This document shows positions 14,000 to 57,522 of a stretch of 64,000 bases of DNA, piece by piece. A model generated the notes under the pieces. That model saw nothing but the letters and a program-made list of their open reading frames with translations. It had not been told where the DNA came from and made no database searches. This DNA is from Chiloscyllium plagiosum (lineage: Eukaryota), in contig NC_057719.1 in NCBI RefSeq assembly GCF_004010195.1, positions 39,670,252-39,734,251 of the forward strand, in the 5' to 3' direction. Within the stretch, counting starts at the first letter, position 1. The number at the start of each line of letters is the position of its first letter. The position numbers and the translations under genes are program-made.

Positions 14000-14419
<420 letters not shown>

Positions 14420-54330: not shown

Positions 54331-55058
54331 CCAATGTCCATTGACTATTTTGTTCTTCAGCATCTCAACTACGAAATCCTAATTTTCATTTGCAAGTTGT
54401 TACACCATGGATCTGCAACACCTTTTAGTTTTGCATCTTCTGTTCTTCCTATTTTGGTCAGCTGGGTGATCTCTCCCTTTTCCCAGCCATCCTTCAGTAC
54501 TGTCACTGGTGATTCAACTTTCAGTTACCTAACTTTATTGTCTAGAACTCACTGTGTCAGCAATTTCCTCCCTCGAGAAATTTTTAAAAGCCTGAAAACC
54601 TGAACTGACCATTTCTTTGCCCATTCCCTCCTCCAGGTTTGAAATGAACTGCAAACTTTTATGTTAATCTTGCTATGCAAATAGTTGACTTTATTTCAAA
54701 GAAAGGGAGACTGATAAGATAATTATCATGTTTGATTGTAAATGTGTCTACCATAAGATTTTACTGGCCAGCCTGGCTCTCAGGGTCACTTGTGCAGTTC
54801 CAGTTAAAATAACGTTGGAGTCCAAATCAGACCATGAATTTTAATTATTTGAGACCTCCCTGCATCAATTACCTGCCAGTAACAGGGAGCCTGATGTTGC
54901 TCAAAAGTTTAAGATGGTGGCAAACCTGAATGAGCAGAAATATACCATATAGCAGAAAGCACTGTCATTTTATAATGTTATACAGCCAGGATTTGCAGCA
55001 ATAGTGTTTGAAAGTGTTGTGATGAATCTAATCAAAACATTTACAATATATGGATATA

Positions 55059-55371
55059 GGGTGTAGGTTTGCTCGCTGAGTTGTAGGTTTGGTATCCAGA
55101 CGTTTCATTACCTGGCTAGGTAACATCATCAGTGGCGACCTCCAAGTGAAGCAAAGCTGTTGTCTCCTGCTTTCTATTTATATGTTTGTCCTGGATGGAG
55201 TTCCTGGGGTTTGTGGTGATGTCATTTCCTGTTAGTTTTCTGAGGGCTTGATAGAAGGTAACTAATTCTATGTGTTTGTTTATGGCGTTGTGGTTGGAGT
55301 GCCAGGCCTCTAGGAATTCTCTGGCATGTCTTTGCCAGATGTCTTTGCCAAACCTTCACAAACCTTGCAAA
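55059..55371 (-). mobile_element. Penelope-like element 3' fragment (family C): GIY-YIG C-terminus plus near-intact hammerhead, 14-bp TSD
   Basis: Minus strand about 55221-55334 translates QRHAREFLEAWHSNHNAINKHIELVTFYQALRKLTGND. Hammerhead at 55096-55135. TSD AATATATGGATATA at 55045-55058 and 55372-55385. Confidence 0.85.
55096..55135 (-). ncRNA. Minimal type I hammerhead ribozyme motif
   Basis: RNA: CCA-CUGAUGA-U-GUUACCU-AGCC-AGGUAAU-GAAA-C-GUC-UGG. Stem I CCA/UGG, 6-7 bp stem II, intact CUGAUGA and GAAA, GUC cleavage triplet. Confidence 0.75.
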
Positions 55372-55494
55372 AATATATGGATATAATATTAGTGTTCTGG
55401 TCACTATACCTCCTCCTTGGCAACTCCTGGACTATGTAAGTCATACATTGGATACTAGTTGAAAATAAAGTTGAAAACATCACTGTGGGAAGAG

Positions 55495-55691
55495 AAAGTA
55501 AGGACTGTGGATGCTGGAGATAAGAGTTGAGAGTGTGGTGCTGGAAAAGTACAGCAGATCAGGCAGCATTCGAGGAGCAGGAGAATCCACATTTCGGGCA
55601 TAAGCCCTTCATTAGGAATGCCCGAAATGTCGATTCTCCTACTCCTTGGATGTTGCCTGACCTGGTGTGCTTTTCCAGCACCACACTTTCG
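55495..55691. mobile_element. Palindromic Penelope-like remnant (family A), 13-bp TSD
   Basis: Arms about 55525-55600 / 55619-55692. Minus-strand core CTAATGA-A-GGGC-TTAT-GCCC-GAAA-TGTG (mutated). TSD ACTGTGGGAAGAG at 55482-55494 and 55692-55704. Confidence 0.82.
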
Positions 55692-57522
55692 ACTGTGGGA
55701 AGAGTGCAACCCAGTGTTAGAATAAAAAGCCAGGACAAACAAGAAATGGTTTCTCTCTGTACTACTATGGAATGTTTAAGGAGCCCTCAGCACAATTCCT
55801 TGATGTCTTGTCAAATGCTATGCTGGAGTGGTAACAAGAGGACCTGATCAATTTTGAATATTTATTGAGAATATTAAACTAGAATAAGTACCTCCTAAAT
55901 TCTACAGGGAGGCTCTACAAGTACAATGTAAGGTTAAATTATTGTCCATAAAATATGTTTGTAAATGTGGAAGTGAATACAAGTTGACTATTTAATTTCT
56001 GTTTTAGATAGATGAAAAATACTTTTGATTTTTGTTTTAAAAGTGTGAATGAAAGAAGTTGACTGAACTAAAGGTTTAGAACTGAATAATTAGCACCATA
56101 ATAAAATTGGGCATATTTCCCCAGACTTGCTGCTGATCTGACATTTGCATAAACTTATACCCAGCTGGATTTGCTTCACAACAGTGAAATTTAGCAACCT
56201 ATTTCTGCAATTATTGCTGCATGTATTTTTAAATGTTACATAAACACAATATATAGCACTAGGCAGTTTATATTTTTAAATCTTTTTCATAACTAGTAAA
56301 AGTTGTTTCGTTGGCAATGACAACCAGTGCTTTACATTGATCTTGTTTTGAAGCATTTTAAAGGTTTTTATTGTCATGCAAAACATATAATTACCTTAAT
56401 AACAAGCAGTGGAACTGTCATGTTTTGTGCTGAATAACACCATACACTTTGTTTTACCTCAGATATTCAAGGTCAAACAAAGTCACAAATGTAATATAGA
56501 GGTGTAATACTCCAATAGGTTTACCTTCCCACACAAAGCCTCAACAGATTAATTAATACTAACAATGAATTGTTGATTATATTTCTGATTTACACTGTAC
56601 ATTGAAATCCAGGAAACAATTTACCTGACTGGAATATAATTATAATACAACCAACCAAAGTCTTCTGAAAGTGTTTATAATGTACTCCTAAGACTGAAGA
56701 ACCAGAATGGGAAGGAACAACAAAATAAAATGACCTTTCCTGGTTATAGAAGAAAACAGTCCAAGGACTATTCAAAGTCAATGCAACAGAAACCCAATAC
56801 AAAAGTAAAATGTGATGGATACATAAAATCTGAAATAAAATGTATGTAGGTATGCAATACTAATTATAGTGAGATTCTGAGTTAATTTTTTAGGTTGACA
56901 CTGTTTGATTAAACTGAAAAAAACTGGAAATGTAAAGGGTCTGTCATCTGGATTGATGATGTCAGCTTGTTCTCCCAGTTGTGTAAGAGTTGAAGGGTCT
57001 GAAAGTGTTAATACTGAAGAGTGCTTTAAACACCAGCTGCTACAACGATGTCATATGGACTTCGTGGGAGAATAGCTTAGAACTTCAAACAAGTAAGACC
57101 TTCCATCTAGATCCTCTTGATAATCTTGGTAACAATGTCTGTCACATCAGTTTGACTACTACATGATTACTAACATACAATAAATAACGTCTGATTTAAG
57201 ACAAGATTATTCACTTTAAGGTAGCAAGTGGTTTTCCTCTTCTACACCACATGAATTGGGCCCTGTAGATTCCTACTCTAAATGATAGCAGCATAATCCC
57301 ATGGTGAACAATAGTGCAAATGGCCTCATCCAACATGGATTGCTTGTACAACAACTTCAACTCGAATTTCTCCCCTTGTTCAATCTCTTCCACTAATCTT
57401 TCAAAGCCCTCCACCACTTTCAAGTTTTCATGTCCTAGCAGTCTCCTTTTCAACATAGATATCCTGTCCCTCTAAATCTCCAGCCCCACTAGTATGACCC
57501 AATAACCCATCACTTAGTCAGA

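Follow-up and report, generated by a model that had tools for sequence, protein, structure and literature searches.

In the 64-kb window (the whole stretch of DNA analysed), three exons on the plus strand at 14000–34968 match Pfam GCD14 (tRNA m1A58 methyltransferase) and are the only matches among the 7 ORFs scanned for a host gene; we take them to be TRMT61A-like. About 20 kb beyond the last GCD14 coding exon lies the insert considered here, 313 bp between two identical copies of the 14-mer AATATATGGATATA, at 55045–55058 (86% A+T) and 55372–55385. The copies are exact, as the initial annotation had stated, and their match cannot be extended at either edge. The body of the insert (55059–55335, minus strand), delimited by read depth relative to the flank, comprises an endonuclease C-terminus, a pLTR with a hammerhead motif and a short, tail-less 3' end. 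No second copy of the family found at 55045–55385 is present within the 64-kb window. A palindromic element of another hammerhead family, with a decayed core and 77-nt arms that are 87% complementary, is located 97 bp from the insert (55482–55704) and lies between two exact copies of a 13-bp direct repeat of its own; motifs related to this second family occur at 1922 (minus strand) and 15729 (plus strand).

None of 5000 random pairs of zones at equal spacing had at least 13 letters in common (maximum 12). Pairs of identical 14-mers are not rare by themselves, 11 having been found in 30 simulated 64-kb windows, and the pair described here is significant because it is placed at both edges defined by the repeat family. 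Reads from 4 of the 24 listed runs (X5, from organism A; X9 and X10, from organism B in two studies; X21, RNA from organism A, of which ~2% was read) were aligned to 54650–55490 at 85% likeness. Summed contig depth was 1e5–1e6 at 55056–55345 versus 3.6–12.6 on the single-copy flank, a difference of 4–5 orders that marks a very abundant family but is not equal to copy number. The read depth of the repeat climbs and drops at both 14-mer edges. On the left, family contigs start at 55057 or 55059 and have unrelated, A+T-rich flanks, while family homology on the right ends at 55335, where the reads run on into upstream endonuclease sequence. The final 2 nt of the left copy (55057–55058) also match the short end of the family, possibly representing a priming microhomology. 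It is nearly certain that the insert is a 5'-truncated Penelope/Poseidon-type element (PLE) of a very abundant family. The 14-mer thus flanking it behaves like a target-site duplication (TSD), as had been claimed, although direct proof by an empty allele was not forthcoming: neither an empty site nor a joint skipping the insert was seen in the 4 runs, in all of which the right flank was uncovered.

A single-copy contig of organism B, seen in two runs of two studies, spans 54650 to 55080 with 15 differences and enters the element by 22 aligned nt, which is below the 31-letter bridging rule of the tool. An empty site would have run on into the right flank. The left junction is common to both species, organism B carrying the insert, which likely predates the split of organisms A and B; a recent or polymorphic insertion was rejected on this ground. 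In X5, 17 places were changed in at least 10% of the depth, with 10 majority differences and 2 near 50%. Four majority differences from the family fall within 11 bp at 55256–55266, inside a short inverted pair, and this cluster may have arisen in a single templated event instead of by point mutations.

The endonuclease reading frame

The minus strand contains a 79-codon open frame ending in DDVT-stop (stop at 55118–55116), confirming the stop-free peptide noted initially. The initial 7 residues are made by the junction and lie outside the element, as family reads diverge after 55335, and the remainder (55116–55334, minus strand) corresponds to the last 72 codons and stop of an RT–GIY-YIG ORF. 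This end keeps the FLEAW and IN motifs, without GIY or YIG. We take these two motifs to contain the metal-binding Glu and the conserved Asn. Since GIY, YIG and the entire RT are missing, this copy encodes nothing functional.

A Pfam scan of the peptide alone matched no family and a same-length homolog search gave no match; a peptide search against 1.84 billion representatives yielded 20 matches at E ≤0.001, and in a family profile search 120 of 6280 candidates matched. The best peptide matches were gene models of carpet sharks (Hemiscyllium, Chiloscyllium, Stegostoma and Rhincodon), followed by flatworms. The zebra-shark protein P0028 could be aligned across all 72 element-derived residues (58% identity, with the same DDVT motif), compared with 45% for P0019. 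P0016, in which 20 of 30 residues agree with the peptide, contains both RVT_1 (E 9.7e-9) and, likewise above the cut-off, GIY-YIG (E 3.2e-5). P0028 has RT motifs, a linker without Zn finger and a Cys-containing GIY-YIG motif, with Pfam scores below the cut-off; in both P0028 and P0033 an RT motif is followed by a linker without Zn finger, the motif YKIPC..C...Y(V/I)GQ and a DDVT or EDVT end. An RT followed by a C-terminal GIY-YIG is the order in the closest long relatives (P0028, P0033 and P0016), of which the window holds the C-terminal 72 aa. The relatives have the CCHH motif, in which GIY and YIG are separated by a stretch holding two Cys; in the insert copy the region concerned is truncated away. 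Judged by eye, the RT–EN linkers of P0019, P0028 and P0033 lack an extra Zn finger, which in the available text of bioRxiv 10.1101/2021.04.23.441226 sets Neptune and Nematis apart. By the clade criterion of that preprint, the 72-aa fragment is the endonuclease C-terminus of a Penelope/Poseidon-type ORF, and the earlier view of the peptide as a PLE endonuclease end is borne out by its alignment with the C-terminal ends of RT–GIY-YIG proteins from sharks and flatworms.

Several carpet-shark gene models (P0002, P0003, P0004, P0027, P0031 and P0032), bearing names such as CUEDC2, WBP2-like, EYA3-like and MAP3K7, end in this PLE endonuclease fragment, either because family copies were exonized or because the annotation is at fault. 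Among named relatives, PLE proteins of tapeworms and flukes come next after the sharks, and the published stem II most like that of the insert belongs to Clonorchis. As many of the matches are cestode and trematode proteins, a flatworm origin by horizontal transfer was weighed but dropped; identities of ~40–60% over short stretches give it no support.

The far junction and the mode of insertion

Two small reiterations reported at the right-hand junction are both present: ATGTCTTTGCCA occurs twice (55326 and 55339), as does CAAACCTT (55349 and 55359). They differ in origin. The former belongs to a junction duplication (55336–55348) with a 13-nt period, made up of the last 10 nt of the body and the first 2 nt of the adjoining piece, such that 55326–55337 equals 55339–55350. 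The latter lies in a 23-nt piece (55349–55371, plus strand) that belongs to the family. Depth at 55346–55374 is still 557–1383, and X5 contigs of other loci have joints from 55076 to 55349 and from 55080 to 55349; in one of these joints the bridging letters repeat the last bases of the element in sense and lead directly into the 55349 stretch. Moreover, 40 RNA reads run beyond 55057 into sequence whose reverse complement holds CAAACCTTCA. The family thus has a tail of ~40 nt past its short end, in keeping with the 30–40 bp tail of PLEs, and the distal 23 nt of this tail are inverted at 55349–55371, whose best match to the body is 8 nt. This piece is therefore the inverted distal tail, absent from the body of the insert copy. 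The doubling of CAAACCTT is native to the tail rather than a local reiteration, CAAACCT is part of the inverted family tail instead of a local inverse copy of the element, and the sole true scar of the junction is the 13-nt-period duplication.

Both 3' ends of the family face outward and abut the TSD copies. In L1 twin priming, two opposite, non-overlapping segments of one RNA, separated by a short gap, lie between TSDs, and the internal priming site shows a short match. The insert resembles this arrangement in its opposite, non-overlapping segments between TSD copies, in the gap and in the match at the internal site, but it has no poly(A), its internal site is a fixed family end and a different class of enzyme is involved.

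Among PLEs, the endonuclease-bearing (EN+) elements PAc of the anole (PMC11167929) and Pen2a of rotifers (PMC3846280) share with the insert, as far as their available descriptions go, a C-terminal GIY-YIG end of the ORF, a pLTR hammerhead, an ATG at the start of stem II, 5' truncation, an A+T-rich target, a TSD, and an inverted copy with a tail at one end only. In contrast to PAc and Pen2a as described there, the inverted copy in the insert is cut down to 23 nt of distal tail with no overlap with the body, and the TSD is 14 bp versus 8–10 bp in the rotifer examples (PMC3846280). An inverted truncated copy with a 30–40 bp tail at one end, all inside a TSD, is the PLE layout given in the accessible parts of PMC3846280 and bioRxiv 10.1101/2021.04.23.441226. 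The anole enzyme is described as cutting and extending both strands in vitro at A+T-rich targets, with two RT start sites that bound the tail (PMC11167929).

These features suggest, tentatively and with somewhat less than even confidence on our part, that the insert is a record of twin priming, in which one RNA was primed at both start sites, one for each strand of a 14-bp stagger. The GIY-YIG endonuclease would have cut both strands of the A+T-rich target 14 bp apart. The plus-strand end would then have served as primer at the short (internal) family start site via the 2-nt match, with 277 nt copied, and the minus-strand end as primer at the tail end, with 23 nt copied. The two cDNAs may have been joined with a 13-nt slip, skipping ~17 nt of the tail, and fill-in would have produced the TSD. 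The step of both-strand priming is read from junction geometry only. A search for literature tying Penelope to twin priming returned, by title and start of abstract and mostly among papers free of subscription, none on PLE mechanism.

The same element could have acquired its inverted tail by self-priming or fold-back on an antisense template, by template switching to a second RNA, or through a minor insertion or conversion at a later time. For inverted PLE junctions, Arkhipova et al. favour the self-priming route in the available text of PMC3846280, and a small inverted pair, TCTGGC (55320) and GCCAGA (55334), is indeed present at the junction; in addition, one X5 family contig has overlapping rather than abutting arms, which a single RNA primed twice would fit less simply and which speaks for such a route in some copies. 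On the other hand, body and tail piece have at most 8 nt in common, so that the latter is not a fold-back copy, the outward-facing 3' ends abut the TSD copies, and both-strand extension has been described for the anole enzyme in vitro (PMC11167929). We regard these other routes as less likely than priming from both target strands.

The hammerhead motif and its activity

A minimal type I hammerhead motif was identified by inspection of the sequence and by a fuzzy scan at 55096–55135 (minus strand), and fits the PLE min-HHR of PMC4209133. The core boxes CUGAUGA and GAAA (55106–55103) are intact, with C3 at 55132 and an unpaired U at 55125. Stem I consists of 3 bp (CCA/UGG) and stem II of 7 bp (55124–55118/55113–55107) with G55124·U55107 as its base pair, and C-GUC is located at 55102–55099, giving a predicted cut between 55099 and 55098. 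Core, stem I, GUC site and the G·U pair are all as initially annotated. The motif had also been called complete and best preserved. It matches the family majority across 55096–55135, and among 7 hammerhead candidates found by the fuzzy scan of the window it is the only one with both boxes intact, but it is not complete: GAAAC abuts GUC without a loop, a palindromic ACGU standing there in place of helix III, so that the loop-closed helix III within one molecule that characterizes a canonical complete type I hammerhead is absent. An Rfam scan of the entire window at the gathering score gave no match, a motif scan of metagenome contigs likewise gave none, and the folding z-score was only -1.87. 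As no nucleotides are present between 15.2 and 16.2, helix III is possible only between two molecules via the ACGU palindrome.

The min-HHR of Cervera and De la Pena (2014; PMC4209133), in its available description, shares with this motif the CUGANGA-H-G start, a 7-bp helix II, a short helix I, the palindromic 15.2/16.2, an unpaired nucleotide between 9 and 10.1 and the lack of helix III. Stem II in its Clonorchis(1) row (Fig. S3) is almost identical to that of the motif, down to the G·U pair, whereas G-C is the commoner published state at 10.1/11.1. The motif is thus the published dimer-dependent minimal form of PLEs. Its host is shark-like, and the 40 species of Fig. S3 of that paper include no cartilaginous fish. 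Canonical type I hammerheads and those of non-LTR retrozymes have the same catalytic boxes; unlike non-LTR retrozymes, the insert is a single dispersed copy with an ORF remnant and a TSD, without tandem array or helix III. Retrozymes are held to derive from PLE pLTRs and to be present in 1 chondrichthyan genome in the accessible part of bioRxiv 10.64898/2026.07.22.740005.

The pLTR hammerhead follows directly on the end of the ORF, the endonuclease frame passing through the ribozyme core and terminating at the top of stem II. A putative ORF start in the pLTR, with an ATG formed by A9-U-G10.1 and a frame open to the element end, was assigned at 55058–55126 (minus strand) by analogy with the anole element, for which an ATG is described where stem II begins (PMC11167929). 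The putative N-terminal peptide matched none of 138 stored proteins. The segment 55106–55132 (minus strand) has three readings: it forms the ribozyme core, it carries the final codons and stop of the endonuclease, and it would open this second frame (ATG at 55129 or 55126), with U11.1 belonging to another in-frame ATG at 55108. The second frame meets no stop before the element end, nor is there one in the tail piece, the open stretch being too short for significance alone. The G·U pair could represent a coding constraint.

The G·U pair had been ascribed to CpG decay. This is contradicted by the X5 reads, in which 55107 is unchanged and no majority difference falls inside the hammerhead; G·U is the majority state of the family, not decay of the insert copy. 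The 6 A>G places in X10 all lie elsewhere than 55107, the corresponding tally for X9 and X21 including 1 and 2 places, respectively, of unlocated position, with 22 difference rows hidden. The neighbouring CpG positions 55101 and 55136 vary in only ~3–10% of the X5 depth. Decay may still have taken place in the family ancestor, or diverged subfamilies bearing C may have been lost to the 85% filter. By our count G·U at 10.1/11.1 is present in 8 of the 56 motifs of Fig. S3 of PMC4209133, among them Schistosoma mansoni(1) and one from Clonorchis that closely resembles the present motif, and its being a novel variant was thus rejected; in the accessible hammerhead literature, no kinetic rate was found for G·U at this position. 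One subfamily, altered within stem II and the loop that caps it (55109–55118), accounts for ~4% of the X5 DNA depth and ~20–25% of the X21 RNA reads, in small numbers, and may be the more expressed one.

That self-cleavage was retained at this locus by a nearly complete hammerhead, weakened by a single CpG-decay change, is improbable. All core nucleotides are intact without majority differences from the family, this is the sole intact motif of the 7 candidates, and an assayed schistosome motif family bearing G·U showed low cleavage of dimers and trimers in the available text of PMC4209133. In the same text, however, single minimal motifs do not cleave, and dimers and trimers do so weakly; helix III is absent here, and G·U is the state of the family. 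According to the accessible sections of PMC11167929, the anole motif cleaves only with protein, insertion is independent of cleavage and no RNA-seq reads end at the cleavage site. In ViennaRNA, the probability of a hammerhead-compatible monomer fold was ~0.003, with the core predicted to be paired away, and a double hammerhead scored -22.5 kcal/mol, whereas two misfolded monomers had -28.8 and the best dimer had -36.3; these nearest-neighbour energies omit tertiary core contacts and do not demonstrate inactivity. Folding energies were no better in an in-silico G-C control of the stem II base.

The X21 RNA gave 166 reads on the repeat (5 of them at ≥99%), with a depth of ~3:1 toward the direction expected of element-sense RNA, and none on the unique flanks, which is weak evidence from a 2% sample of one run. 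Family RNA reads traverse the predicted site without an end pile-up, itself a weak indication for this type of library. As to a partner, the neighbouring motif at 55615, which belongs to the other family, was rejected owing to its broken core, lack of a cleavable triplet and incompatible stem I, and no compatible motif was found in the window. The motif had been put forward as the best candidate for residual activity, which is not supported: it is a single copy, partnerless in the window, whose core is predicted to be sequestered. It is likely that the hammerhead cannot cut itself alone; by analogy with the published motifs, cleavage would require a second copy, with the protein of the element probably needed too. 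Lacking helix III, a near partner and any sign of transcription of the locus, it is likely a silent passenger of the pLTR. Chance occurrence of the 14-mers and hammerhead boxes, or a mis-assembled unit, fits the number of 14-mer pairs in simulated windows, the silence of Rfam and the modest z-score, but is scarcely credible given that repeat depth rises and falls where the TSD copies lie, that a second species has the left junction and that the protein homology is clear.

Implications for Penelope-type elements

We consider it highly probable that the insert is a 5'-truncated, non-coding PLE insertion, likely primed on both strands, with a hammerhead that would require a second copy, and probably protein, to cleave. 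The tie between ribozyme and Penelope-type ORF drawn in the initial annotation is upheld, since the endonuclease C-terminus runs into the hammerhead; such a link is already the published rule for PLEs in the available text of PMC4209133 and is not new. A literature search found no published description of this shark PLE family, to which the hammerhead class is hereby extended; being of the ordinary minimal form, the motif matters little as a ribozyme. Reading G·U as decay is a tempting error that the family reads corrected. The useful part is the geometry of the junction, which bears on how the PLE tail and inverted ends are formed. With its many copies and its fixed short and long ends, the family makes both-strand priming testable by junction counts. 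If twin priming is true, it would explain why PLE insertions have a tail at only one end, and this abundant shark family would supply thousands of junctions for testing it.
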